Assembly (NCBI GenBank): GCA_039801245.1
Contig: JBDRUF010000001.1
Location: 170-64,169 of the forward strand
DNA length: 64,000 nt
Direction: 5' to 3'
From: a candidate division WOR-3 bacterium
Lineage (GTDB): Bacteria > Hydrothermota > Tepidihabitantia > Tepidihabitantales > Tepidihabitantaceae
The notes under the pieces are model-generated. The model was not told the origin of the DNA. It made no database searches and was given only the letters and a program-made list of their open reading frames with translations. Below are positions 3,376-43,500 of this stretch, one piece after another. Position 1 is the stretch's first letter. Every line of letters begins with the position of its first letter. Made by a program: the position numbers and the translations under genes.

Positions 3376-4650
3376 ATGCAAAGTGCAAAATGTAAAAATC
3401 AAAATTTTGCATTGTTAGTTTTCCATTTTGCCTTTTGCGTCGCATTCTGCATAATAGCCCCCTCTTGTGCGCTTCCAGCGCGGCTTTCACATAAGCCAAT
3501 AGAGCAAAACCTTGAGCCGCAGGAGGTTCTGAGAAGGCTATCGGAGTTAAAGTCATTCAGGTTTTATCTGCAATACTTTACCGATGTGCCGGTGAGAATC
3601 AGGGCGCAGTTTTCCGGCATTTTCAATCAACCTGACATTGAATCCTGGGATGGTTTCTATGTTAAAAATGGTAAAAAGGTTAGGGCGGTTTTGCGGGCAA
3701 GGGCAGATGTTCAGATGCAACTCAGTGATGCCGGCTGGCAGACCCAGCCAAGGGGTCTGGAGACAATGATAGTGAAACAGATTGAGCAGGTTCTCACAGG
3801 AGCCAAGCTTGAGTTCTTGCAGGAGGAAAAGGGGCGGGTTCTTTATCAGTTTGAGCCGCAAATGAGTCTGATTGACCCATTAAGGGTGAAAAGGCTTAAG
3901 GGCGTCGTTGAACTGGACGGGGTTTCTGGTCTGCCGGTCAGGCTCTTTTGTTTTGATGAGAATGGCGCTGCTAAATGGGAGGTTCGGATTGACCGTTATA
4001 ATCGCGCGGGCAGGGTGGAAATGCCCTTTGTGCCGGTGATGAGGCTGAGCCTTGTGCCTCAGAGTCGTTCCTTGCTAAAGGGGCAAAGGCAAGAGGTGAT
4101 GAGGATTCTTAAGGAGCGGTTTAAAGATTTTGGTCTTGAGCATCGGCTGAAATGGATGGGTTCAGCGCTTAGCCTTGAGATTGACCGGGCAATGACCATT
4201 CAGGCATTAAGGCTCTTGACATCGAAGGGCAGGATTGAAATCTATCAAGGGTCCTGGGTAAGGCAAGGTCAAGATTCCTCAATCTATCCTGTGGTGCCGG
4301 TTGCCGGTGATGCCGCAAGGATGATTCACCTTGATACCCTTCTTGCCGATAACAGTTTGATAGATGCCGAGGTTGATTGCACCCTGCCGGTCCAGCCAAA
4401 ACTGATAATCAAACTACAAAACACGGACGAGGGAAGACGGGAGACGGAGGTCATCGGTCTTCGCTCCTCGCTCCTCGGTCAGTTTGCGCTTGTTGTTGAT
4501 GGCGCGGTTGTGGATGTTACTGAAGAGATTACTGAGAATAGATTGGTTTTTGCTGATTTGGGGAACGAGGAGACTGTGCGTATCCTTGCTGCCCTTGCAA
4601 ACAATCCGCCCTTGCCGGTTGATTTAGGGTTGGTTGTTAAAGAGAGATAA
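3376..4650 (+). CDS. Hypothetical protein; predicted ATG lies inside the upstream terminator, so the true start is probably downstream
   Basis: Long ORF with consistent coding statistics. Hydrophobic segment ALLVFHFAFCVAFCIIAPSCA near the N-terminus. C-terminal FALVVDGAVVDV...LAALANNPPLPVDL loosely resembles the SecD-type periplasmic LDG..V...G.LP motif. No confident family. Confidence 0.35.
   Translation: MQSAKCKNQNFALLVFHFAFCVAFCIIAPSCALPARLSHKPIEQNLEPQEVLRRLSELKSFRFYLQYFTDVPVRIRAQFSGIFNQPDIESWDGFYVKNGKKVRAVLRARADVQMQLSDAGWQTQPRGLETMIVKQIEQVLTGAKLEFLQEEKGRVLYQFEPQMSLIDPLRVKRLKGVVELDGVSGLPVRLFCFDENGAAKWEVRIDRYNRAGRVEMPFVPVMRLSLVPQSRSLLKGQRQEVMRILKERFKDFGLEHRLKWMGSALSLEIDRAMTIQALRLLTSKGRIEIYQGSWVRQGQDSSIYPVVPVAGDAARMIHLDTLLADNSLIDAEVDCTLPVQPKLIIKLQNTDEGRRETEVIGLRSSLLGQFALVVDGAVVDVTEEITENRLVFADLGNEETVRILAALANNPPLPVDLGLVVKER
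3382..3420 (+). terminator. Rho-independent terminator after the 945-aa OM protein gene
   Basis: tgcaaaat (3384-3391) pairs with attttgca (3404-3411) around a 12-nt loop, followed by the T-rich ttgttagttttcc. Preceded by the tandem repeat gtgcaaaatgcaaa / gtgcaaaatgtaaa. Confidence 0.5.
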
Positions 4651-4756
4651 TTACCAAAGAATGCGGGAAAGCATTTCGAGCGATTGTTCCGATGCATTTT
4701 TTCAAGTTATCTGCCGATGTTGACCTATAATAGATTGTTGGTAAAATTTTTTCTTC

Positions 4757-5542
4757 ATGCCCAGCGACATTAAAGTGAATAATCCGGTTGAAAAAAGGGC
4801 GCTTAAGCGCTGGTTTAATGCGGATGGGTTTTTGTCCAGTCTGCGCCGGGTGAACATCTTTTGTGGCGGCTACGGCTCGGGCAAAAGCGAGATAGCGGTC
4901 AATTTTGCCATCAGCCTCAGGGAAGAGGGGAAAGGGGTAAGTATCGCTGACCTTGATGTTGTTAACCCCTATTTCCGCTCCCGGGAGGCGCGCAAACTCC
5001 TGGAGGGTTTGGGCATCAATGTTTTGGTCCCGCCTGAGGAGGTGATGGCGAGCGATTTGCCGATGTTGCAGCCAGAGATAAAAGGTGCGCTTTTTGCCGG
5101 TGAAGGTTTTGTTGTGCTTGACCTTGGTGGTGACCCGGTGGGCGCGCGGGTGATGGCAACCATTGCCTCTGGCATAGAGCCCTTTGATTTTAACTGCTTT
5201 TTTGTCCTAAACTCAAGGCGACCCTTTACCCGCACGGTGAAAGAGGTTGTTGAGTTGATAAAGGAGATTGAGAACTCTTCGGGTCTGCAGATTACCCATA
5301 TTGTTGTCAATTCCCATCTGATTGAGGAAACAACTTCCCTTGTGATTGAAGAGGGAATTGAACTTGCCGAGATGGTCGGTGTCAAGACCGCCAAACCGAT
5401 TGGGTTTGTTGCGCTGGAACAAAGGGTGCTTGAAGATTTTGCCTTTGAAATGTGCCCTTACCCGGTTTTGGTGATTGAGCGGCTGCTCTTGAAGCCCTGG
5501 GAAAAGGGTGAGGGATTGGGACCGCAGCGGTTCAGGATTTAA
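4757..5542 (+). CDS. P-loop NTPase (Walker A GGYGSGKSE, Walker B VVLDLGGD), function unknown
   Basis: Walker A and B motifs present; about 260 aa. Sits immediately upstream of the ferredoxin/2-oxoacid oxidoreductase operon. A TTGACC...TAAAAT promoter-like sequence lies at 4722-4750. Confidence 0.45.
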   Translation: MPSDIKVNNPVEKRALKRWFNADGFLSSLRRVNIFCGGYGSGKSEIAVNFAISLREEGKGVSIADLDVVNPYFRSREARKLLEGLGINVLVPPEEVMASDLPMLQPEIKGALFAGEGFVVLDLGGDPVGARVMATIASGIEPFDFNCFFVLNSRRPFTRTVKEVVELIKEIENSSGLQITHIVVNSHLIEETTSLVIEEGIELAEMVGVKTAKPIGFVALEQRVLEDFAFEMCPYPVLVIERLLLKPWEKGEGLGPQRFRI

Positions 5543-5551
5543 GGAGCGCAA

Positions 5552-5794
5552 GTGGCAAAAAAGGCAAAGGTAACGATTGACAGAAACCGGTGCAAGGGGT
5601 GTGAGTTGTGTGTCAACTACTGCCCGAAACAGGTCCTGGCGATGTCAAAGGAGATTAATGACAAGGGCTACTTCTTTGCCCAGGTGGTTAATCAGGATGC
5701 CTGTATCGCCTGCAGGTTCTGCGGGATGATGTGTCCCGACTGTGCGATTGAGATTGCGGTTGATGAGCCTGAGGCGCAGGAGGTTAAGGGGTAA
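5552..5794 (+). CDS. 2-oxoacid:ferredoxin oxidoreductase delta subunit (2x[4Fe-4S] ferredoxin)
   Basis: Two CxxCxxCxxxCP motifs: CKGCELCVNYCP and CIACRFCGMMCPDC. 80 aa. First gene of a four-gene cluster. Confidence 0.8.
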   Translation: MAKKAKVTIDRNRCKGCELCVNYCPKQVLAMSKEINDKGYFFAQVVNQDACIACRFCGMMCPDCAIEIAVDEPEAQEVKG

Positions 5795-6855
5795 TGGCTA
5801 AGATTCTGATGAAGGGTAATGAGGCGATTGCCGAGTCGGCAATAAGGGCGGGTGGTCTTTGCTATTTTGGCTATCCCATCACCCCGCAGTCCGAAATTGC
5901 CGAGTATCTGGCGCACCGGATGCCTGAGGTTGGGGGTGTTTTTCTCCAGATTGAGAGTGAGGTGGCGGTTGCCAATTGCCTTTATGGTGCTGCTGGCGCT
6001 GGTGCCCGTGCCTGGACATCATCATCAAGCCCGGGAATAAGTCTGATGATGGAGGGCGTTTCCTATATTGCCGCATCAGAACTGCCCTGTGTGATTGTCA
6101 ATATTGTCCGTTGCGGTCCTGGTCTTGGTGGGATTCTGCCATCACAGGGTGACTATTTCCAGGCGGTTAAGGGTGGTGGTCATGGCGATTACCGCTGCCT
6201 GGTGTTGGCACCATCATCGGTCCAGGAGGCGGTTGATTTGATGCCACTTGCCTTTGACCGGGCAGACAGGTATCGGAACCCGGTTATCGTTATCGGCGAT
6301 GGGATGATTGGTCAGATGATGGAGCCGGTTGAGTTCAAGGAGCAAAATTTTCCACCGCTGCCGCCAAAGGACTGGGCAACAACCGGCTGCAAGGGGAGAA
6401 GGCCGAATGTTATCAACTCACTCTACCTTGACCCGGTGATTGAGGAGAAACTCAACTTCAAACTGGCGGCAAAGTATGAGGAGATGAAGAAAAAGGAAAT
6501 CAGGTTTGAGGAGTATCGGACCGACCGTGATATGGACTGCCTTCTTGTTGCTTACGGCACCACCGCTCGGGTGTGCAAGACCGCTATTCAGCGCCTTGAT
6601 GAGGAGAAAATCAGGGTTGGGCTTTTGCGTCCGATTACCCTTTTCCCGTTTCCTGAGGATAAGGTTTTTGAACTCTCCGAGAGGGCAGGGTTTGTGATGA
6701 GTATCGAGATGAGCACCGGTCAGATGGTTGAGGATGTGAGGCTTGCGGTTGGCAGGACAAAGCCGGTCTATTTCTTTGGCAGGGCAGGTGGAATGGTCCC
6801 AAGTCCAGAGGAGGTTATGGAGGCGGTAAAAAGCCATCTTGGAGGCAAGAGATGA
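5794..6855 (+). CDS. 2-oxoacid:ferredoxin oxidoreductase alpha subunit
   Basis: MAKILMKGNEAIAESAIRAGGLCYFGYPITPQSEI N-terminus is typical of KorA/PorA/VorA. Start overlaps the delta-subunit stop. Confidence 0.85.
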   Translation: MAKILMKGNEAIAESAIRAGGLCYFGYPITPQSEIAEYLAHRMPEVGGVFLQIESEVAVANCLYGAAGAGARAWTSSSSPGISLMMEGVSYIAASELPCVIVNIVRCGPGLGGILPSQGDYFQAVKGGGHGDYRCLVLAPSSVQEAVDLMPLAFDRADRYRNPVIVIGDGMIGQMMEPVEFKEQNFPPLPPKDWATTGCKGRRPNVINSLYLDPVIEEKLNFKLAAKYEEMKKKEIRFEEYRTDRDMDCLLVAYGTTARVCKTAIQRLDEEKIRVGLLRPITLFPFPEDKVFELSERAGFVMSIEMSTGQMVEDVRLAVGRTKPVYFFGRAGGMVPSPEEVMEAVKSHLGGKR

Positions 6856-7613
6856 GGGTGATATTTAAACGCCCGGAATCTTTAACACCCACCCCGACCC
6901 ATTACTGCCCTGGCTGCACCCATGGCATCATCCACCGCTTGATTGCTGAGGTGATTGATGAGTTGAATTTAAGGGAAAGGGCAGTGGGAATTGCACCGGT
7001 TGGCTGTTCGGTCCTTGCCTTTAACTACTTCAACTTTGACTTTCAGCAGGCGGCTCATGGCAGGGCGCCCGCGGTTGCAACCGGGATAAAAAGGGCAAGA
7101 CCTGATTTGATTGTGTTTACCTATCAGGGTGATGGTGACCTTGCCTCAATCGGGATGAGCGAAATCATCCATGCGGCAAACCGCGGCGAGAAGTTCACGG
7201 TGGTTTTTATCAACAACGCCATCTATGGGATGACCGGCGGTCAGATGGCACCAACAACAATGCCCGGACAGGTTACAACCACATCACCAAGGGGAAGGGA
7301 TGTTAATGATGTTGGCTATCCTGTCAGGATGTGCGAACTCATCTCCAGCCTGCGCACCCCCAGTTTTGTTGAGCGGGTTACGGTTCACAACCCCAAGGGT
7401 GTTACCAACGCCCGGCGCGCGCTCAAGCAGGCTTTTATTTATCAGAGGGACAATGTCTGCTTCACATTCGTTGAGTTCCTTTCAACCTGTCCGACAAACT
7501 GGGGTCTTGCACCGATTCAGGCGGCAAGGTGGCTGGAGGAGAATATGATTCCCTATTATCCGGTAAGGAACTTCAAGACACCGGAAAAACCAGAGGCAAA
7601 AGATGCAGATTGA
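6852..7613 (+). CDS. 2-oxoacid:ferredoxin oxidoreductase beta subunit (TPP-binding)
   Basis: HYCPGCTHG and GDGD..SIGM TPP-binding motifs. 4-nt overlap with the alpha subunit. Confidence 0.85.
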   Translation: MRVIFKRPESLTPTPTHYCPGCTHGIIHRLIAEVIDELNLRERAVGIAPVGCSVLAFNYFNFDFQQAAHGRAPAVATGIKRARPDLIVFTYQGDGDLASIGMSEIIHAANRGEKFTVVFINNAIYGMTGGQMAPTTMPGQVTTTSPRGRDVNDVGYPVRMCELISSLRTPSFVERVTVHNPKGVTNARRALKQAFIYQRDNVCFTFVEFLSTCPTNWGLAPIQAARWLEENMIPYYPVRNFKTPEKPEAKDAD

Positions 7614-8157
7614 GACGGTATTTGCCGGTTTTGGAGGACAGGGGGTGATGCTTGCCGGCAGGGTCCTGGCTGAGGTGGGGATGAAACTTGGCAAGGAGGT
7701 TGTCTGGCTTCCATCGTATGGACCGGAGATGAGGGGAGGGACAGCAAACTGTGTTGTCATCATCGCTGATGAGCCCATCGCATCACCGATTATCGCCCAT
7801 CCGAGGGATGCTGTTGTTATGAACCGCCCCTCACTTGAGAAGTTCTGCCCGGCGCAGAAGCCAGGGGGATTTGCCATCGTCAACAGTTCACTGATAAACA
7901 TCAGACCAGAAAGAAATGACCTTAAGGTTGTTGAGGTGCCGGCGAATGAGATAGCGATTGAGGCTGGGAGTGGCAGGGCGGCAAATATGGTGATGCTTGG
8001 TGCCTATGTTGGTGCCACCGGGATTGTGCCGCTTGAGGCGCTTCTTGAGCAGGTTAAGGAGGAGTTTGAAGCCAAAGCAAAACTGATACCATTAAACATC
8101 AAATGCGTTGAACAGGGCTTTAGAATCGGGCAGGAGGCTTTAAAAACCTCAAAATAG
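7603..8157 (+). CDS. 2-oxoacid:ferredoxin oxidoreductase gamma subunit
   Basis: VFAGFGGQGVMLAG...LPSYGPEMRGGTANC gamma-subunit signature. Overlaps the beta subunit. The delta-alpha-beta-gamma order is Kor/Vor-like. Confidence 0.85.
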   Translation: MQIETVFAGFGGQGVMLAGRVLAEVGMKLGKEVVWLPSYGPEMRGGTANCVVIIADEPIASPIIAHPRDAVVMNRPSLEKFCPAQKPGGFAIVNSSLINIRPERNDLKVVEVPANEIAIEAGSGRAANMVMLGAYVGATGIVPLEALLEQVKEEFEAKAKLIPLNIKCVEQGFRIGQEALKTSK

Positions 8158-8159
8158 AA

Positions 8160-8612
8160 AAATCCATATAAATTACAACCAAGGATACCATATAGGATAT
8201 TATTCGGTGACTCACTCAGGGATTTAGTCACCGAGTGACTCGGTATTTCACTTGGTAAGTGAATCAGGGTTTCAATCCTTGAGTCAACCCTTTATTCATT
8301 GGGTAAATCATTCTCTGTCTTATTCAGTGTTTGATACCCTGATTCTATCTCCCTGTAATTCAGAGAGTTAAATAGTGAATGATTCAGGGATTAAATTACC
8401 CTGTGATTCTGGGTGTGACTCAGGGGGTGACCCCCCGGGTCACCCCCTGAGTGATTCCCTGGGTGGTATCATATGCAATTAAGGGTTAAGAATGATTTAG
8501 ACCGTTCATCAGCGCAGGGTATAAGAGATTGGCTGGGGAGCAGGTTAATGGTGAGCTCTTTTTCTATCACATTGATTTTGAATCGGATAGGTAAAAAGGA
8601 GAGTCTAATCTA
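8160..8612. promoter_or_regulatory. Unusual ~450-bp leader/regulatory region upstream of grpE-dnaK-dnaJ with repeated TCAGGG/CCCTGA motifs and perfect palindromes
   Basis: At least 4 copies of (A/C/T)TCAGGG at ~8216, 8264, 8384 and 8430. At least 4 reverse-orientation CCCTG(A/T) at ~8337, 8351, 8399 and 8445. A 13-bp perfect inverted repeat ctcagggggtgac / gtcaccccctgag at ~8428-8460. ttcactt-ggt-aagtgaa at 8248-8264. ccgagtgactcgg at 8231-8243. No canonical CIRCE and no hrcA. Confidence 0.5.
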
Positions 8613-9176
8613 TTGATGTGTGAAGTTGAAAGACAACCTCTGGAAACAAAGGCCAAAAAGGGTCCGGTAACTTTGTTGACCGAAAGGGTGGCAGAGCTTG
8701 AGGCTGGTGTGAAGAGCCTGAAGAATGATTATCTGCGCGCTTTGGCAGATTTTGACAACTTTCGGAAGCGGACCGAGCGGGATATTGAGATGAAAAGGCA
8801 GGCGGGTGTGGAGGCGCTTTTTGCCGATTTGTTGCCGGTCCTTGATAATTTTGAACGGGCGCTTGGTGCACCGAGTGATAATATTGATGGTATTAAGAAG
8901 GGCATTGAGCTGATACATAAGGAGTTATGCGCGGTGCTCAAGAGGCACGGGCTTAATGAGTTTTCCTGTCAGGGTCAGGTTTTTGACCCGAAGCGGGCAG
9001 AGGCGATTGGCTTTGTTGAGTGCGAAGAAAAGGATGCCAATCTGGTGGTTGAGGAGTTGTGCAAGGGTTATGAGTTCTCGGGCAGGGTGATAAGACCGGC
9101 GCGGGTGAAGGTGGGGAGAGCCAAGTTAGAGTCGGGTGAGGATAAGGCAGGGAAAGAAGGGGAAATCGCCCAGTAG
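8613..9176 (+). CDS. grpE: Nucleotide exchange factor GrpE
   Basis: LRALADFDNFRKRTERD GrpE signature. The ORF table uses TTG at 8613; the next codon, ATG at 8616, is the likely start. SD-like aaaggagag sits upstream. Confidence 0.9.
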   Translation: MMCEVERQPLETKAKKGPVTLLTERVAELEAGVKSLKNDYLRALADFDNFRKRTERDIEMKRQAGVEALFADLLPVLDNFERALGAPSDNIDGIKKGIELIHKELCAVLKRHGLNEFSCQGQVFDPKRAEAIGFVECEEKDANLVVEELCKGYEFSGRVIRPARVKVGRAKLESGEDKAGKEGEIAQ

Positions 9177-9241
9177 GTAAAAGGAGTCTAATAGGGTGAT
9201 AAAGATTTGGAAATTCACCTTCTTTATGAAAGGAGGAAAAT

Positions 9242-11128
9242 GTGAGTAAGGTTATTGGTATTGATCTGGGAACGACATTCTCCTGTGTGGCGGTGATGGA
9301 GCGTGGTCAGCCGGTTGTTATACCCAATCCTGAGGGTGGCAGGACCACGCCTTCGGTTGTTGCCTTGGGCAAGGAGCGGCTTGTTGGCACCCTTGCCAAG
9401 CGCCAGGCGGTGATTAATCCGGAGTCAACCATCTATTCAATCAAGCGTTTTATGGGCAGGCGGTATTCTGAGGTCAGTGAGGAGATTAAGCGGGTGCCCT
9501 TCCGGGTGGTTGAGTCGGCAAACGGTGATGCCTGGGTTGAGGTTGATGGCAAGCGCTATTCACCCCCTGAGATTTCCGCGATGATTCTCTCCTATCTGAA
9601 AAAGGCGGCAGAGGCATATTTAGGTGAGGCGGTGACCAAGGCGGTTATTACCGTTCCTGCCTATTTTAACGACTCCCAGCGTCAGGCAACCAAGGATGCC
9701 GGTAAGATTGCCGGGCTTGATGTGTTAAGAATCATCAATGAGCCCACCGCAGCCTCACTGGCTTATGGTCTGGACAAGAAGCGCTCAGAGCGGATTGCGG
9801 TGTACGACCTTGGCGGCGGCACATTTGACATCTCTATCCTTGAGATTGGTGAGGGTGTTTTTGAGGTGCGTTCAACCAATGGTGATACCCATTTGGGTGG
9901 GGATGATTTTGACCAGCGGGTGATGGACTGGATTATCAGCGAGTTCAGAAAGGAGCACGGGATAGACCTTTCCAAGGACAAGACCGCATTGCAGCGGATT
10001 AAGGAGGCGGCAGAGAAGGCGAAGTGTGAGCTTTCCACCTCTATGGAGACCACCATCAGTCTGCCGTTTATCTATGCCGATGAGAAAAGGGGCCCCCTCC
10101 ACATTGACTATCGGCTGACAAGGGCAAAACTGGAGGCGCTGGTTGAGGACCTAATCCAGCGCACATTCGGGCCGGTCAAGCAGGCGCTTGAGGATGCCAA
10201 GCTGACACCAAGGGATATTGATGAGGTGATTTTGGTTGGCGGTCAGACGAGGATGCCGCGGGTTCAGCAGCTGGTGCGGGACTTCTTTGGCAAGGAGCCG
10301 CACAAAGGGATAAATCCAGATGAGGTGGTGGCGATAGGTGCGGCGATTCAGGGTGCGGTTCTTGCCGGTGAGGTCAAGGATGTGGTTCTTTTGGATGTGA
10401 CACCGCTTTCACTTGGGATTGAGACTGCGGGCGGGGTATTTACCAAAATCATTGAGCGCAACACCACCATTCCCACAAGGAAGAGTCAGATTTTCACCAC
10501 GGTTGAGGACAATCAGACCACCGTCCGGATACATGTGCTTCAGGGCGAGCGGGAGATGGCGGCAGACAATCGCACATTAGGGATGTTTGACCTGGTGGGA
10601 ATCACACCGGCACCAAGAGGGATTCCCCAGATTGAGGTGACATTTGACATTGATGCCGATGGTATTCTCCATGTTACCGCCAAGGACAAGCTGACCGGGA
10701 AGGAGCAGAGCATCAGGATTACCGCATCATCCGGTCTTTCCAAAGAGGAGATTGACCGGATGGTGAGCGAGGCGCAGGCGCACGCTGCAGAGGACCGCAG
10801 GCGCAGGGAGCTTGTTGACAGCCGCAATCGTGCCGATACCATTATCTATCAAACTGAGCGCACCCTGAAGGATTTGGGTGAGCGGGTGCCGGCTGATGAT
10901 AGAAGGCAGATTGAGGCGGCGATTGCTAAGTTAAAAGAGGTGATGAAGGGCGAGGACAAAGGTGCGATTGATGCGGCTATTGCTGATTTGCAGAGGGTGA
11001 CCGCAAGTATGGGTGAGCGGCTTTATCGTCAGCAGGCAGGAGCTGGTGGTGAAGAGAAGGGTGGCTCAGGTCAGGATAAAAAGGTAGAGGCTGATTACAC
11101 GGTAATTGACGACGAAGGTAAGAAATAA
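9242..11128 (+). CDS. dnaK: Chaperone DnaK (Hsp70)
   Basis: GTG start giving [18 protein letters not shown], plus [12 protein letters not shown] and full-length Hsp70. aggagg RBS upstream. Confidence 0.97.
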
Positions 11129-11174
11129 AAGGAGGCTGGTTTAGAACTGAAGGTTTTAAGGAGGTGTGTTCTTA

Positions 11175-11196
11175 AAGCCGATTGAAATGTCGGCTT
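11175..11196 (+). other. Intercistronic stem-loop between dnaK and dnaJ
   Basis: aagccga-ttgaaatg-tcggctt gives a 7-bp stem. No T-tract follows, so this looks like an attenuator or processing hairpin rather than a full terminator. Confidence 0.35.
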
Positions 11197-11204
11197 AGTT
11201 AATA

Positions 11205-12347
11205 ATGCCTCAGACAAAAAGGGACTATTATGAGGTCCTGGGCGTTTCCCGTAATGCCACACAGGAGGAGATAAAGAGCGCCTACCGCCGGCTCGCAAAA
11301 GAGTATCACCCTGACCGCAACCCGGAAAACAGAAAAGAGGCTGAGGAGAAGTTTAAGGAGCTCTCTGAGGCTTATGAGGTTCTGGCTGACCCAGAAAAGC
11401 GCCGGATTTATGACACCTATGGACATGAAGGGGTTTCTTCTCAGTTTGGTCCTGGTGGCTTTGATTTCCGGCGTCACTTTACCCACGAGGAGGACCTTGA
11501 GGATATCTTTGGTGATATCTTGCGCGGGTTTGGCGGGGGGGCAGGGAGCCTGTTTGATTTGCTCTTTGGTTCTGAAGAAAGAAGGGCAACCAGGCGCCAG
11601 ACTCGGGGAAGGGATATTATCATCAGGATGCGTTTGAGCCTGGAGGAGATTGCGAGCGGTGTGACTAAAGAGGTAAGGTTTTCCCGTTACGAGGTGTGTC
11701 CTGACTGTCGGGGTGCTGGCGGCTCAGGTCGGGTTAATTGCGGGACTTGCGGTGGTACCGGCAGGATCAGGCGGCAGACCAGTTCGATATTCGGGCAGTT
11801 TGTTCAGGTATCAACCTGTCCAGATTGTGGGGGGACTGGTGAACGGGTGAAAAGTTTGTGCCCGCGCTGCAATGGGGAAGGCAGGATAAGGCAGAGTAGA
11901 ACCTTAAAGGTAAGAATTCCCGCTGGAGTAATGCCAGGAATGCCGATTGTCCTTCACAATGAAGGGCATTGGGGTCCGGGTGGGAGTGGTGATGTGGTGA
12001 TAGAGGTGGAGGAGAAGGAGCATCCGCTTTTTGTTCGGGATGGGGACAATGTGATTGTGGAGGTGCCGATTTCAATTCCGGTTGCGGTGTTGGGAGGTAG
12101 GATTAGGGTGCCAACATTGAACGGGATTAAAGAGGTGGAGATACCGGCAGGGACAAATTCAGGGACAGTTTTTAGGTTGCGGGGACAGGGGATAAAGAGG
12201 ATGGAGGGTGGTAGCGGTGACCTGTTGGTGAGGGTGGTGGTTCATATCCCCAAACATCTCAGCCAGAAGGAGCGGGCGCTTTACAAGCAACTGACTGAGA
12301 TTCAGTCAGAACCGGTGCCCGAGCCAAGAAAGCCTGTGGGTTCATAA
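11205..12347 (+). CDS. dnaJ: Chaperone DnaJ
   Basis: J-domain [36 protein letters not shown]-rich region. Four CxxCxGxG zinc-finger repeats. Confidence 0.95.
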
Positions 12348-13069
12348 TGGAGTATTTCTATCTTCAAGAGGTGAGTTTTGAAAAAGGGGAGGCGGTGATC
12401 ACTGGACAGGAGGCAAGGCATATCGCCAAGGTTTTACGACATAAACCCGGTGACGAGATTTTTGGCACAAATGGTAGAGGGGATGAGTTCAGGATGGTAA
12501 TTAAGGGTATCAAACCGGACAGGGTTTTGGTGCAGGTGCTCGAGAGAAGAAATGGGCAAAGGGAACCGGCACATAGGTTGACACTGGCTCCAGCGGTTTT
12601 GAAAGGGGATAAACTTAGTTTCGTGGTTGAGGCGGTGACTGAATTAGGGGTTAGTGAAATAGTTCCCTTTTTCAGTTCACGGGTGATTGGCAGGATGGGC
12701 GAGAGGAAGTTGCAGCGGCTTCGGACGGTAGCAATAAGCGGGATGAAGACCGCCTTAAGGACATTTCTGCCCGAGGTAAGACCGGCAGTTGAGTTTGAAT
12801 CCCTTGTCAGGAGATTTAAGGATTTTGACAGGGTTCTTGTTGCCTATGAAGAGGAGCATGCCACAAGTTTAACGGCGGTTTTAGATTCTAAGGTCAAGTC
12901 GCTCCTTTTGGTTATCGGTCCTGAAGGTGGGTTTACAGAGGAAGAGGTGACTGGTATGCGGGAGGCAGGGGCAGCCCTTTTCACCCTTGGTCCAAGGAGA
13001 CTTCGGGCTGAGACCGCAGCGGTTGCGGCAACGGCACTATGTCTGGGGCTTTTGGGTGATTTAAAATGA
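12347..13069 (+). CDS. rsmE: 16S rRNA (uracil1498-N3)-methyltransferase RsmE
   Basis: N-terminal PUA-like region (GEEARHIAKVLRHKPGDEI) and C-terminal SPOUT motif LLVIGPEGGFTEEEV. Overlaps the dnaJ stop (TAATGG). Confidence 0.75.
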   Translation: MEYFYLQEVSFEKGEAVITGQEARHIAKVLRHKPGDEIFGTNGRGDEFRMVIKGIKPDRVLVQVLERRNGQREPAHRLTLAPAVLKGDKLSFVVEAVTELGVSEIVPFFSSRVIGRMGERKLQRLRTVAISGMKTALRTFLPEVRPAVEFESLVRRFKDFDRVLVAYEEEHATSLTAVLDSKVKSLLLVIGPEGGFTEEEVTGMREAGAALFTLGPRRLRAETAAVAATALCLGLLGDLK

Positions 13070-13087
13070 TGAGCCTAAAGAAAGGAG

Positions 13088-13294
13088 GTGGAGCGTTTAA
13101 TGGTAAGTATTACCGTAAGAGAGGGCGAGCCGTATGAGAGTTTTATCAGGCGGTTTCGCCGGGCGTGTGAACAGGCCGGGATCCTGCGCGAATTCAAACG
13201 CCGGGAGTATTATGAGAAGCCCAGCGAGCGGCGTAAGCGCAAGATGGCTGAGGCGAGACGCCGGCTCTATCGTAAGCAGATGAGCGAAAGATAA
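13088..13294 (+). CDS. rpsU: 30S ribosomal protein S21
   Basis: ESFIRRFRRACEQAGILREFKRREYYEKPSERRKRK is the S21 signature. The internal ATG giving MVSITV, 12 nt downstream, is the more likely start. aaggagg RBS. Confidence 0.85.
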   Translation: MERLMVSITVREGEPYESFIRRFRRACEQAGILREFKRREYYEKPSERRKRKMAEARRRLYRKQMSER

Positions 13295-13318
13295 ATTATA
13301 AGATGTTCGGTAAAGAGG

Positions 13319-15631
13319 TTGCTGAAATTGGATGAGAAAACGCTAAAGGCGTTAGACTTCTTTCGCATCCGAGAGGAGCTTGTGAGCCTTTGTGAGAGTG
13401 AATTGGGAAGGGAGCGGGCGCGAGTATTGGAGCCGGTGCTAACGGAGTTGGAGGTTAAGACTGAGTTTGAGCGAATGGAAGAGTTGATGGCACTTGAGAC
13501 GGAACCACCTCTGTCAGGAGTGGGCGATGTTCGGGGACTATTGCGAAGGGTGGAGGCAGGAGGTGTTCTTACACCTACTGAACTGTGGCAGGTGCGAAAG
13601 GTGTGCGAGCAGTTTGAGTTGTGCGAGCAGTTTTTCCGGCGTCACCAAGAAAGAATCACTGCACTTAAACCAATCGTTAATGAAATAGTGGGGCTATATC
13701 AGTTAAAAAAGGCAATTGACCAGGCGATTGATGAGTCTGGTGCGGTCAAAGACAATGCGAGCCCAAGATTGAAGGAAATAAGAGCGGAGTTGCGGGAACG
13801 GCGCAATCAACTGGTGGAGCGTCTGGAGCGAATGATGGAGAGAAATCCCGAGAGATTCGAAGGACCGGTGATGGTGCGAAGAGAAAGATTTGTTCTGCCG
13901 GTAAAACTGGAGGCAAAAAACCAAGTGCCAGGTGTTGTCCATTCATTATCTGCCAGCGGTCAGACGGTGTTTGTGGAACCATTGGAGAGCATTGATGAGC
14001 AGAATAGGTTGCAGGAGTTGCGGGATGCTGAGACTGAGGAGGTTGAGCGGATTCGGCGGGAACTTTCGGCATTCGTCTTCAATTATCGAGAGGAGATCGA
14101 CACCGGTCTAATGGCGATGGCAGCTCTGGATTTGCTTTTGGCGAAGTGCCGATTTGCAAAGAGGTTTGGTTGTCTCCGCCCGATAATTGATAATGCCCGA
14201 CTGGAGATTGTTCGGGCAAAACATCCATTGTTGGTTCTCCATAAGACCAATGTGGTGCCGCTTGATTTCATCTTACCAGACCGAACAAAGGTTGTGCTTG
14301 TTTCCGGACCAAACGCCGGTGGCAAAACGGTGGTGTTAAAGACGATAGGGTTATGCAGCGTGCTTTTGAAATGCGGAATGTTTGTGCCGGCAGCCGTGGG
14401 GACGAGGTTGCCGCTTTTTGAAAGGATTTATGCGGATATCGGTGATGAGCAGTCCTTGGAGGCGGATATATCGTCGTTTACTGCCCATCTCATTAGACTG
14501 AATGAGGTCTTGGCGAGTGCTGATGCGCGCACCTTAGTTTTAATCGATGAGATTGGGGCGGCAACCGCGCCGGAGGAAGGTTCGGCGCTGGCGTTTGCTA
14601 TTCTCGAGGAACTACGCGACCGGGGTGTATGCACAATTGCTACAACCCATTTTAACAGTCTAAAGGTTTTTGTGCAGAATGAAGCGGGGATGGCTAACGC
14701 AGGAATGGAGTTCAGGAACGGTCCGACCTATCGGTTGATAATGGGTATACCGGGTGAGTCAAGTGCCTTTGAGATTGCTGAACGTTCGGGTTTGCCCCTA
14801 AGAATAATTATACGGGCAAAGGAGCGGATGGGAAAGGAATGGGTGGATTTCAAGGTTAAGCTGCAACAACTGGATGAGGAACTTAGGGAGATGGCAAAGG
14901 AGAGACAAGAGATAGATAGGAATAAGACGAAGGTGAACGAAATGGTTCAGGTTTACGAAAAAAGGTTGAGGGAGTTTGAGGAGTGGCAGGCGCGAGAGCG
15001 AAATAGGTTTATAACCGAGCAGGAACGGCTGTTGAAGGAGATGAGACGGCAGGTTGAAAATCTGGTGAGGGAGTTGCGTGAGCGCCAGGCAGACCATGAA
15101 AGTATTGTCCGGGCAAAACGGTTCATTGAGGAGAAACTTGATAAAATAGAGTCCGAGAGACAGGAGATATTACCAGTGCAAACCGTGTCTGCGTTTGGTG
15201 TTGGTGATATTGTCGAGTCCCTCCTTTTTCATCGTCGGGGGAAAGTGGTCGCAGTGAATGGTGAACGGGCGGTCGTGGAGTTTGGAAACATCAAACTTGA
15301 GGTTGAGACCGGCATTCTGAGATTGGCTGCTGAAAAGGATTCAAGGCAGACAGAGGTCAGGGTTGAGGAGTTTGAGTTTGTTCCGAGGTTGAATATCCGG
15401 GGTATGACAAAGGAAGAGGCGGAGATGGCGGTGAGTAAATTCTTAGATGAGGCAATGAATGTAGGGGCCACAGAGTTAGCGATTCTCCACGGGAAAGGGA
15501 CGGGTGCTCTTAGGCAGATGCTCTGGCGGCGATTGCGTAAGGATGCCCGGGTAGCGGAAATCAGGTTTGCTGAACCATCAGCAGGTGGAACTGGGGTAAC
15601 GGTTCTAAGACTCCGAGGTGAAAGTGATTAA
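13319..15631 (+). CDS. mutS2: Endonuclease MutS2 (MutS domain + C-terminal Smr domain)
   Basis: Walker A GPNAGGKTVVLKT. DEIGAATAPEEG. C-terminal Smr NIRGMTKEEAE...ILHGKGTGALR. 770 aa. Confidence 0.9.
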   Translation: MLKLDEKTLKALDFFRIREELVSLCESELGRERARVLEPVLTELEVKTEFERMEELMALETEPPLSGVGDVRGLLRRVEAGGVLTPTELWQVRKVCEQFELCEQFFRRHQERITALKPIVNEIVGLYQLKKAIDQAIDESGAVKDNASPRLKEIRAELRERRNQLVERLERMMERNPERFEGPVMVRRERFVLPVKLEAKNQVPGVVHSLSASGQTVFVEPLESIDEQNRLQELRDAETEEVERIRRELSAFVFNYREEIDTGLMAMAALDLLLAKCRFAKRFGCLRPIIDNARLEIVRAKHPLLVLHKTNVVPLDFILPDRTKVVLVSGPNAGGKTVVLKTIGLCSVLLKCGMFVPAAVGTRLPLFERIYADIGDEQSLEADISSFTAHLIRLNEVLASADARTLVLIDEIGAATAPEEGSALAFAILEELRDRGVCTIATTHFNSLKVFVQNEAGMANAGMEFRNGPTYRLIMGIPGESSAFEIAERSGLPLRIIIRAKERMGKEWVDFKVKLQQLDEELREMAKERQEIDRNKTKVNEMVQVYEKRLREFEEWQARERNRFITEQERLLKEMRRQVENLVRELRERQADHESIVRAKRFIEEKLDKIESERQEILPVQTVSAFGVGDIVESLLFHRRGKVVAVNGERAVVEFGNIKLEVETGILRLAAEKDSRQTEVRVEEFEFVPRLNIRGMTKEEAEMAVSKFLDEAMNVGATELAILHGKGTGALRQMLWRRLRKDARVAEIRFAEPSAGGTGVTVLRLRGESD

Positions 15632-40565: not shown

Positions 40566-43500
40566 TCAGTCTTGGATTATTACCTTTTCTGAGAGGATGT
40601 TCTTGCCGCTTCTCATTTTGACGAAGTAGACACCCGCTGGTGCGACCCTGCCTTTGTTTGTCCGCCGGTCCCAAATGATGTTGTGCCTGCCAGAGGCAAT
40701 CGTCCCATCAATAAGGGTGCGAATTAGGGTGCCGGTGGCGTCATAGACCTTTATCTGCACCTGACCGGAAGATGGCAGGGTGTAGGATATTTGCAGATTA
40801 CCACGGCTCGTGGGATTGGGATAAACGGTGAGTGTGAGTTCATTTGGCAGTTTGGTGTTTTCCGCCATTACACCTTCACGAGGAGGCACAGAACCGGTCA
40901 AAAGGAAGGAGTCGGTTTCCGGGCGGTATTCCCAGAACTCATACACCATTGAGCCTTTGAGACAGAAGATGGCGTCTGATGTTGCTGCGAGTGCGGCTCC
41001 CCGCTTGGGTTTACGGCGCTTGCCGGTGATCGAGAAGGGGATATCAGACCGCTGCACCCAGACATTGCCGCCACCAATCTGATAGCTCCAGAACTCCTGA
41101 CAGTTGCCTCCTTTTAGAACATAGAGGTTGTTGTCAAGGAAGGTGATGGCGCCACCATTTTTCACCCGGCGGTTACGGGTGCCTATCAGGGTGACCTCAT
41201 CCAACGGAATGGTGTGCCAGACATCAAGGGCAGGACGATATTTCCACACCTCGGTGGAGTTTGAACCTTTCAGGAGATAGATGATGCTATCGCCGTCATA
41301 GACCATATCGGTTCCAAAACGGCAGGTTTTTCTGTTGCCTGGATTATACGGCACATCAGGGCAGCGGAACCAGCTGTCCCTGGCGACATCAAACCTGAGG
41401 AAGGTGAGGGTGTTGCTACCGGTGGCGCAATAGACCGTTCCATTAGCACCTTGGGTCGGCACATAGGCGAGTGCGGCTCCCCGTTTGGGCGGACGGAAAC
41501 TAAAACCTTCAACCCTTACATTGGGCTTGATAATCCAGGAGTCAAGGGCAATGTCATAGAGATAGAAGTCGCCCGTTCCACCACCCTTGATTGCCCAGAT
41601 GCCGCCATTAGTTCCCTGGAATGGGTCAAATACCAGGTCGCAACCATCCTTGGGCTTTTTACCAGATGGGGCAAGGGGCATCCGTGAGAGCGAGTCCCAG
41701 GTGCCGGTGGCAGGGTCATAGCAGTAAAACTCGTTGCTATTGCCACCCTTGAGTGCGTAGAGTTTATTCGTGGTTGAGGCGTAGACCAGAGAGGCGTCTT
41801 TTACCTTCTTTCGCTGCGGACCAATCGGGATGTCCTCGCGCTGAACCCACGCAGATGCGAAGATGTTCTTGATGACAAAATTGTTTGCCGGATTGATATC
41901 GCCCGTCATCGCCACCGAGCAGACTGCCGTGAAGTTCCCTCTACCAGACCAAGGCGCGGGGAAGGTTAAGAGAGTCTCCCGTTCAGGTCTGAGCCCGGTA
42001 ACAAGGAGTGATTCGAGATACGTTCCAGGGGTGATTGAGAGATACACCATAATTGAGTCGCCAACAGTGCCGTAATTCTGAATCCTGACCTCCGGGTTTA
42101 AGGGCACAGGGAAGACATTGTATTCCGGTTTGACAATCTCAAGGGCAGCGGCATCGCGGAATTCACGATAGAGTTTTATCGCCCGACCTGATGTGAGCCG
42201 GTTGGCAGGGTCGTTGACCGCCAGGGACATCGGCGGTAAGGAGTAAAGGTAGTTGAGGCCAGCGGTGCCTTCCTTATTTTCCACACCGATTGAGGCGTTC
42301 TTCCCCTGGTCATATACCAGGCTGCCAGTTTCCACATCCTTGTACTGGAAGACGATGGTGCCGTTCTCGTTGAGGATTGCCTCAAAACTGACCAGGTTGG
42401 TCGTGTCCGTTCCCTTGACATTGACATTGTGCCAGATGACAACGAATTTCCGATTGGGCATTTCGCCGATCGTTTTGTAATAAACCCTGCTCGCCGAGGT
42501 GAGGACAAAGTCGCACCACCAGGGGTAGATGCCGGCGTTGGGGAGGCTGTCAATGGGCAGCCGTTTGGGATTGGGCGTGGCGGTATGGGGGTCAGGACCG
42601 AGCGAGAGCCAGCCGTTGGTGGTGACATAGCAGTTGTCATAGGTGGTGTCAGACCAACGGAATTTGAAACCGAGCGGGACGAAGAGGCGGTCATCATCAC
42701 CACGGGAGAAGACCACATTGAAGCCGGTGGTGTCAATCCAGTCATATACCGGACCATCGGTGGTGTCGGAGTCAATCCAGGCGTAGCCCGCAGGATGCCT
42801 GCCGGTATAGGCGCCTTTGAGGACATCAACGGTAAAGCGCTTGTCGTCGTTCTGGGGAACATCATCTGGAGATGCCAGGGTGCGCACGATGATTGAGCAG
42901 GTCTGACCGACAATTGGCACCCAGGTGTTGAAACTTACCCCAATCTCTTCGTTCGGGTTTATCTGGGCGATGTTGACACTGTCGTAATAGAGGAGGGCAT
43001 TTGCCGGGTCAAAGACCGAGCAGACAACCGGGACATAGTAAAGGGTGTTGGTGCCGAAGTTGTGGATATGGGCGGTGATTGGACAGGGGGCATCAAACGG
43101 TCGCTGGATAAACTCATAAAGGGGCTGTTCAATAAAGGTGACCCGCACATCATTGGCGCTCGGGGTAAGTGTTGAGTGATTGACTATCGCCCGCAGCATC
43201 AAGTCCCCAGGGGGTGTGTAGGGTGTAACCGTGCCACCACGGTGAAACTCCCAGTAGGCGCTTGGGTTGTTAAGGGAGTTGTCCGCACCAAGTTGAGGGC
43301 ATTCAGGCGGCTCGCCCACCTGCAGGTAAAAGAGATAAAATTCGTTGGGAACAACAATGTATTCCCCAATATCGGCAAGAAAGACCGAGTTCCAGCCTGA
43401 GGTGCCAGGGGTGGCATAAAGGACCGGGCTCTTATAGATAAATGGACCGGGGTTGCCGGCGCCATCATCAAGCGCAACCGCCAGTTGATAGCGGCAGTGG

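Follow-up and report, generated by a model that had tools for sequence, protein, structure and literature searches.

The stretch of DNA considered here, referred to below as the window, is a 64,000-nucleotide segment of contig JBDRUF010000001.1 (assembly GCA_039801245.1) from a candidate division WOR-3 bacterium. It contains a 455-bp gap between a gene cluster for the delta, alpha, beta and gamma subunits of a 2-oxoacid:ferredoxin oxidoreductase (OFOR; 5552-8157) and the chaperone operon grpE-dnaK-dnaJ-rsmE-mutS2 (from 8616). Within this gap lies a degenerate tandem array of 12-bp units, the subject of this report together with orf123, a small gene that is found directly behind arrays of this kind elsewhere in WOR-3. 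A preliminary description, made from the letters of the window, had reported reiterated motifs in both orientations, several palindromes and the absence of any open reading frame (ORF) in the gap, and had proposed either a cooperative binding array for a heat-shock regulator or a structured leader. The absence of coding capacity is borne out, as no ORF of at least 40 amino acids lies within 8232-8472 and stops occur in all six frames.

When positions 8198-8485 are laid out in lines of 12 bases, 24 head-to-tail units become apparent. Self-identity of the array is 0.52, 0.51 and 0.48 at lags of 12, 24 and 36, compared with 0.16-0.38 at other lags. Measured in 240-bp segments, lag-12 identity is 0.525 at the array against a window-wide mean of 0.274 (standard deviation 0.035), and the 25 highest-scoring segments are all located here. 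Conservation is concentrated in particular columns of the unit: T3 is kept in 23 of the 24 units, A5 in 22, T7 and C8 in 18 each and G12 in 17, with the remaining columns kept in 9-13. The resulting between-column variance of 19.8, compared with 5.2 under uniform decay, was attained in none of 20,000 simulations. Tandem Repeats Finder detected the best-preserved part alone (8403-8465), and, considered as a possible dispersed repeat (REP or MITE), the array has one copy in the 64 kb and another, gene-linked, in the same species. There is also a 4-nt sub-period within the 12-bp unit, visible as an A-x-T-x pattern with self-identity of 0.34-0.38 at lags 4, 8, 16 and 20. A second Tandem Repeats Finder match with a similar unit (GGTGGTGTCATA, 42618-42651) was set aside; its surroundings are G+C-rich and there is no 12-bp array there.

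The motifs singled out in the preliminary description are units of this one 12-bp tandem array, and they are visible in both orientations because the core TGAnTCA is palindromic. The earlier count of at least eight copies stands for a loose form of the motif and fails for the strict form, GANTCAGGG, which has four copies here (8261, 8381 and 8417 on the + strand and 8337 on the - strand) out of nine in the window, with 0.06 expected per 453 bp. The relaxed form GANTC(N0-3)GGG occurs seven times here and 31 times in the window, TCAGGG has six copies here and 72 in the window, and the palindromic TGANTCA is found at five sites in the region. Every one of the 300-bp segments with the highest motif density falls in this region.

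The palindromes reported earlier are likewise present. The arms of the 13-bp perfect inverted repeat, ctcagggggtgac (8419-8431) and gtcaccccctgag (8439-8451), extend to 15 bp around a 3-nt loop, and a similar G+C-rich palindrome is found near the gene-proximal end of three orf123-linked arrays (loci L016, L010 and L019). The loop itself (8434-8436) reads CCC in the window and in strain L005 and GGG in strains L002, L003, L004, L006 and L007, all of them 98.2-99.8% identical to the window. This difference looks like a hairpin-loop inversion, or flip-flop, rather than three independent substitutions, and it suggests that the palindrome extrudes or recombines in vivo.

The same six close strains all keep the array upstream of grpE. 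Beyond them, it is absent from this position in L001 (GrpE 79% identical; 210 nt available upstream) and in L008 and L009 (GrpE 72%), and in L012-L015 (GrpE 61-63%) other genes precede grpE and there is no array. Among the grpE relatives examined, only L010 and L011 (GrpE 64%) carry an array before grpE. The L010 array is the positional homologue of that in the window, both being situated just after the OFOR gamma gene, and in L010 and L011 it is followed by a strong Shine-Dalgarno site and orf123, an ORF of 123 amino acids that Pfam leaves unannotated, then by a spacer and grpE. No tblastn trace of orf123 is found anywhere in the window, and in a pairwise alignment window positions 8490-8612 match the spacer that follows the orf123 stop codon in L010; orf123 has therefore been cleanly deleted here and the array kept. 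L008 and L009 present the mirror image, with the array gone and orf123 persisting at the same position as a pseudogene with four in-frame stops and 43% identity (L008 3414-3785; L009 342-713), which suggests that the module has repeatedly been lost or relocated.

The species represented by the window retains the complete module at another place. The window is 99.79% identical to L004 (contig CBFGKL010000002.1 of assembly GCA_965649345.1), and contig CBFGKL010000004.1 of the same assembly carries an intact array with orf123 (locus L016, protein P0122). As L004 and L016 belong to one assembly, the species of the window therefore has an intact array and gene elsewhere. At L016 the two occupy an island-like stretch (4526-5846) that is bordered by sugar-modification genes and also contains toxin-antitoxin pairs (HepT/MNT and DUF4258/DUF2283), a setting consistent with the module having moved.

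A metagenome scan returned 421 orf123 relatives, from which 80 loci were kept; with five loci fetched earlier, 85 were tabulated. The fetched loci each have a 12-bp non-coding array just upstream of orf123, in unrelated neighborhoods containing pyruvate kinase, radical-SAM, lipopolysaccharide, toxin-antitoxin or clpB genes, and clustering of the 85 loci revealed no gene family that co-occurs with orf123 as a conserved neighbor. Among periods of 5-30, the strongest one upstream of orf123 is 12 or 24 in every locus with at least 250 nt of upstream sequence (72/72; median identity 0.56). As a control, 12 or 24 is the best period in 10 of 75 downstream regions and 8 of 48 far-upstream regions, and 0.16% of background windows reach an identity of at least 0.45. 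Gene-linked arrays comprise ~15-50 units (180-600 bp), share a common unit consensus that is in most cases partly palindromic, and are generally depleted in AAA/TTT runs (0.36). The unit profile of the window array has a similarity of 0.89 to that of L016 and 0.91 to that of L010, with an information content of 7.4 bits per unit compared with 5.9 and 5.3, respectively. Among the distant family members, L102 likewise has an array. At locus L057, a further segment with a 12-bp period (483-874; identity 0.54) lies ~800 nt upstream of the gene-proximal array and may be a second or orphan array.

The orf123 family comprises 77 clusters at 90% identity, nearly all of them 121-126 amino acids long, and every organism name given by the sources is WOR-3. 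An exhaustive HMMER search extends the family to 952 representatives at 50% identity (E <=1e-3). AlphaFold2, run on the family alignment, gives an all-helical model (predicted local distance difference test score 92.6) with helices at residues 4-14, 17-55, 60-77, 84-100 and 105-115, and this model shows the layout of the capsid proteins of Adnaviria, in which an extended N-terminal helical arm precedes a C-terminal helical bundle. The top Foldseek matches in the PDB are capsid proteins of archaeal filamentous viruses, including SIRV2 (3j9x; template modeling score 0.70), AFV1 (3fbz), SFV1 (6d5f) and PFV2 (6v7b), together with 5w7g, 3fbl and 3f2e. At the level of sequence, a profile of 35 close members gives weak PDB matches only, and profile A3, built from 78 diverse members, matches SSRV1 6wq0 (7.3e-9), SIRV2 3j9x (7.1e-8) and SFV1 6d5f (1.5e-5); these matches cover nearly the whole length and take in the N-terminal arm. 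Single orf123 sequences score 13.1-22 bits against Pfam gathering cut-offs of 25.2-27 (PF12193, PF25647 and PF21660); the genes are annotated as hypothetical because single sequences fall just under the thresholds for PF12193 and PF25647. Sequence profiles and predicted fold agree in identifying orf123 as a homologue of the SIRV2-fold major capsid protein of Adnaviria.

The orf123 protein is basic, with 22 lysines and arginines against 14 aspartates and glutamates in P0121. Its gene is chromosomal and stands alone amid housekeeping genes, with no other viral genes. PHROGs and NCBIfam contain no family for it, tblastn against deposited virus genomes returned nothing, and IMG/VR yielded no relatives in a search with two WOR-3-clade peptide patterns, which would catch close relatives only. 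Four family members are considerably longer (P0276, P0325, P0340 and P0346; 243-488 amino acids), and one of them is matched over two stretches. These may be multidomain proteins or fused dimers and call to mind the heterodimeric capsid proteins that lipothrixviruses possess.

Table 1. Coordinates of features in the region between the OFOR cluster and grpE (window positions).
Feature	Position	Strand	Remarks
Degenerate tandem array, 24 units x 12 bp	8198..8485		consensus ~aGT[G/C]AnTCnnnG, with a partly palindromic core TGAnTCA; probable orphan copy of an orf123-linked array
Two small palindromes (ccgagtgactcgg, 8231-8243; ttcactt-ggt-aagtgaa, 8247-8263)	8231..8263		array units with palindromic core
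Perfect palindrome CTCAGGGGGTGACCC-CCC-GGGTCACCCCCTGAG	8419..8451		about three units, where GTGAC units meet GTCAC units
Deletion scar and spacer	8476..8563	+	from ~8490 aligns with the L010 spacer 3' of the orf123 stop codon
Inverted repeat CTATCACATTGATTTTGAATCGGATAG	8564..8590	+	grpE-proximal, outside the array; TATCnCATTGATTTnGAATCGGATA is the 25 nt at 8565-8589
TCTAAT, -10-like hexamer	8604..8609	+	6 nt before the ATG at 8616; putative promoter role
grpE	8616..9176	+	heads grpE-dnaK-dnaJ-rsmE-mutS2; Pfam GrpE, E 7e-46; context, outside the element

In the virions of SIRV2, AFV1, SFV1 and PFV2, each asymmetric unit pairs one capsid-protein dimer with 12 bp of DNA in the A-form, around which the N-terminal helical arm is wrapped (PMC5517147, PMC6105669, PMC7189273). 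A 12-bp period with two-fold-symmetric cores, located beside the gene of a capsid homologue, points to a phased docking track that would accept one dimer per unit. We consider it probable that window positions 8198-8485 are an orphan copy of such a 12-bp-phased DNA track, the constant upstream partner of the small, basic, all-helical orf123 protein in WOR-3. One symmetric orf123 dimer would dock on each 12-bp unit at the partly palindromic core TGAnTCA, and adjoining dimers would touch, so that 15-50 of them would form a short phased nucleoprotein filament. The N-terminal helical arms would wrap the duplex, and the DNA would probably be in the A-form, as in virions. For gene-linked copies, the likeliest uses would be as a nucleation or storage site and in feedback on the promoter of the neighboring orf123. 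Through the deletion, the lineage of the window lost orf123, and the remaining array stands 79 bp before the grpE control region. Because the same species keeps an array and gene elsewhere, the orphan array could still be loaded in trans by the orf123 protein encoded there, or it could be a relic that has not yet eroded.

Several observations weigh against this phased-track interpretation. The link between protein and array rests on co-occurrence and on the matching 12-bp number, and the window copy is without its gene and so may do nothing here. A scan of the SIRV2 genome for a 12-bp period found no comparable array; sequence-phased loading is thus not a known trait of the viral proteins, which coat DNA irrespective of its sequence, and would be confined to the bacterial system. 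Of the more distant family members, L105 and L106 fit poorly, the former having a doubtful array and the latter none. Runs of GGG/CCC, which favor A-form DNA, are enriched 3.8-fold in the window array and have a median enrichment of 1.0 over arrays generally, so that the depletion of AAA/TTT is the one compositional trait bearing on the A-form that arrays share. The arrays also fold well as single strands. Finally, an impression that the arrays of the window, L016 and L010 correspond unit by unit was not confirmed, the best in-register identity being 0.54-0.58 compared with 0.48-0.52 at other offsets.

The closest known system is the Adnaviria nucleocapsid, in which major capsid protein dimers of SIRV2, SSRV1, AFV1, SFV1 and PFV2 wrap A-form double-stranded DNA and with which orf123 shares its fold. 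The viral proteins coat whole genomes and have no known sequence-phased site, whereas orf123 is bacterial, chromosomal and solitary amid housekeeping genes, with a dedicated track of 180-600 bp. An analogy for the phasing itself is offered by the origin of assembly of tobacco mosaic virus, a nucleation site in which a G recurs at every third base, matching the 3 nt bound by each coat-protein subunit. A 12-bp period for a dimer that covers 12 bp follows the same logic, although the tobacco mosaic virus system is viral, uses RNA and a 3-nt period, and has an unrelated protein fold. Among cellular proteins, the alpha/beta-type small acid-soluble spore proteins of Bacillus coat double-stranded DNA and shift it towards the A-form. 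They are, to our knowledge, the only well-known bacterial precedent for the activity proposed for orf123, and they differ from it in being spore-specific, in having an unrelated fold and in lacking a dedicated sequence-phased loading array.

The capsid protein of Adnaviria has been described as unique, and these viruses as having no connection to those of bacteria or eukaryotes (PMC10848233). Our search of the literature for bacterial homologues of this protein found no report, and no published description of the array-orf123 pairing was found either. We regard array and orf123 together as a new kind of system, of which the window holds the orphan half. With a bacterial family that has the Adnaviria capsid fold, phylogeny can be used to test where that virus realm came from, and each orf123 track is a ready-made, sequence-defined substrate for in vitro studies of A-form DNA wrapping. 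For genome annotation, the system accounts for a class of 200-600-bp "empty" intergenic regions in WOR-3 genomes.

More tentatively, and with somewhat less than even confidence, the interpretation may extend to WOR-3 as a whole and to the wider family of ~950 sequence clusters. The orf123 protein would then be a cellular relative of the Adnaviria nucleocapsid protein that builds a short A-form filament on its own 12-bp track, forming a new bacterial chromatin or autoregulatory device. It would provide the first link of this fold outside archaea, as either a cellular ancestor or a domesticated copy, and orphan tracks, that before grpE-dnaK-dnaJ among them, would serve as extra loading sites at which the protein could insulate or silence neighboring genes. 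If true, this would define a new class of DNA-organizing protein in bacteria.

The alternative that survives best accepts the identity of the element and holds that the window copy is a dead relic, an un-eroded remnant of the module with no function at grpE. This is possible, if on balance unlikely. The clean deletion of orf123 in the window, the converse decay in the sister lineage L008 and the fact that other relatives manage without any array at grpE are all in keeping with it, and the six close strains are too similar (98.2-99.8%) to reveal purifying selection. On the other hand, the orphan array is no more degenerate than its gene-linked counterparts, as the information contents given above indicate, its conserved columns are the same as theirs, and the species itself encodes a cognate protein whose unit preference is the same.

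An iteron or centromere-type site, or the operator of some other protein, such as a replication origin or partition site, with the orf123 link reflecting regulation of orf123 only, is improbable. The resemblance is to parC/ParR (10-11-bp iterons) and tubC/TubR (12-bp iterons), in which a small DNA-binding protein polymerizes on the repeats and autoregulates, and in which tandem repeats of 10-12 bp typically lie before a small gene, much as the short tandem repeats here directly precede that of orf123. The ends of the array (I1 and I2) are, moreover, inverted relative to each other, and its genomic context is variable. The orf123 loci differ from these systems in their chromosomal, variable contexts and longer arrays (15-50 units), and across the 85 loci no Rep gene or motor nucleoside triphosphatase (ParA, ParM or TubZ) co-occurs with orf123. 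The predicted fold of orf123 differs from both ribbon-helix-helix and winged helix, GC skew does not switch here, which counts against an origin, and the 12-bp agreement with the footprint of the viral homologues would have to be a coincidence. The P-loop gene at 4757-5542 probably offers no partition motor either, being of NUBPL type and also heading the OFOR cluster in L008, which has no array.

This gene encodes a 261-amino acid P-loop nucleoside triphosphatase with weak ParA/NUBPL and CbiA matches, and it heads the OFOR cluster in the window, L008 and L010. Rather than acting as a partition ATPase, its product probably supplies the oxidoreductase with Fe-S clusters as a carrier.

A structured RNA is highly improbable. 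In this view, transcription of the array would yield a leader or small RNA, and the 12-nt repeats in it would act like CsrB, either by folding or by titrating an RNA-binding protein. The window array does fold strongly, with a z-score of -8.4 on the + strand and -6.2 on the other, and the + strand is 18 kcal/mol more stable than the - strand. Over 34 arrays, however, the median z-score is -2.4 in the sense and -3.0 in the antisense direction, sense being the better in 11 of 34, and several arrays have z-scores near 0 although all retain the 12-bp period. Fold strength appears on both strands and is not conserved across arrays, so the source of the self-complementarity is the palindromic DNA of the units and not a conserved RNA. 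The only Rfam match in the window is a tRNA elsewhere, and the homologous viral proteins bind double-stranded DNA. The structured leader of the preliminary description thus finds no support.

The heat-shock proposal, an operator array for a regulator that replaces HrcA and its operator, the controlling inverted repeat of chaperone expression (CIRCE), carries very little probability and appears largely refuted by the comparative sequence data. Its attraction lies in position and composition: the array is palindromic and precedes grpE-dnaK-dnaJ, and its GAGTGAnTC units bear a loose resemblance to GAGTGCTAA, the half-site of CIRCE. Flanking the L010 array are ATAGCACTC and GAGTGCTAT, and orf123 locus L017 adjoins clpB. 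The absence of a canonical CIRCE (TTAGCACTC-N9-GAGTGCTAA) noted earlier was also confirmed, with 0 matches window-wide at up to three mismatches, and HrcA is not among the ten ORFs examined around grpE (4757-15631). Against this, the array is missing before grpE in L001, L008 and L012-L015 and present at loci without chaperone genes, and in 72 of 72 loci it is orf123 that it accompanies. In L017, clpB and orf123 converge, and clpB does not lie behind the array. The HspR-associated inverted repeat (HAIR; CTTGAGT-N7-ACTCAAG) fares no better than CIRCE, with three weak matches in the window, none near grpE, compared with 2.3 expected by chance. A cooperative binding array remains the best reading of dense, reiterated and partly palindromic half-sites; it is the heat-shock role that the relatives do not bear out, and the grpE region here is, on this comparison, not a novel heat-shock operator.

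A more plausible basis for control of the chaperone operon is another inverted repeat, conserved among relatives and situated at the putative grpE promoter. The repeat TATCnCATTGATTTnGAATCGGATA is conserved in the window, L001, L008 and L010 and occurs once in the window, with 0 expected, and the sequence further upstream of it is not conserved in L001 or L008. In the same four genomes, GTCTAA(A/T) is conserved 5-8 nt ahead of the grpE start. The inverted repeat and GTCTAA(A/T) are thus better candidates than the array for the grpE operator and promoter. With a -10-like motif 5-8 nt before the start, grpE may be leaderless, and both the operator and the promoter of a grpE-dnaK-dnaJ transcript without a leader may lie within 8564-8609. 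A scan for sigma-70 promoters and terminators gave results at chance level.

A protein-coding tandem repeat, as a remnant or in an alternative frame (12 nt being four codons), has next to no probability: in 35 of 61 arrays, at least 80% of the length is open in one frame or another, and gene prediction occasionally places ORFs in them, but arrays simulated from the unit profiles are open about as often (50% compared with 57% observed), the open frames fall on either strand (17 on + and 28 on -), the window, L016 and L010 arrays carry 2-4 stops or more in every frame, and the conserved columns (3, 4, 5, 7 and 12) lack codon periodicity.

One distant locus stands apart in its organization. On L106 (JGI Ga0172362_10029932), four tandem orf123-family paralogues of 132, 124, 124 and 127 amino acids (940-2972), without a 12-bp array, follow a cluster of DnaA-box-like 9-mers (TGTGGATAA / TTATCCACA, ~960-1160), and this contig may be a plasmid-like or virus-like replicon with several SIRV2-fold proteins.

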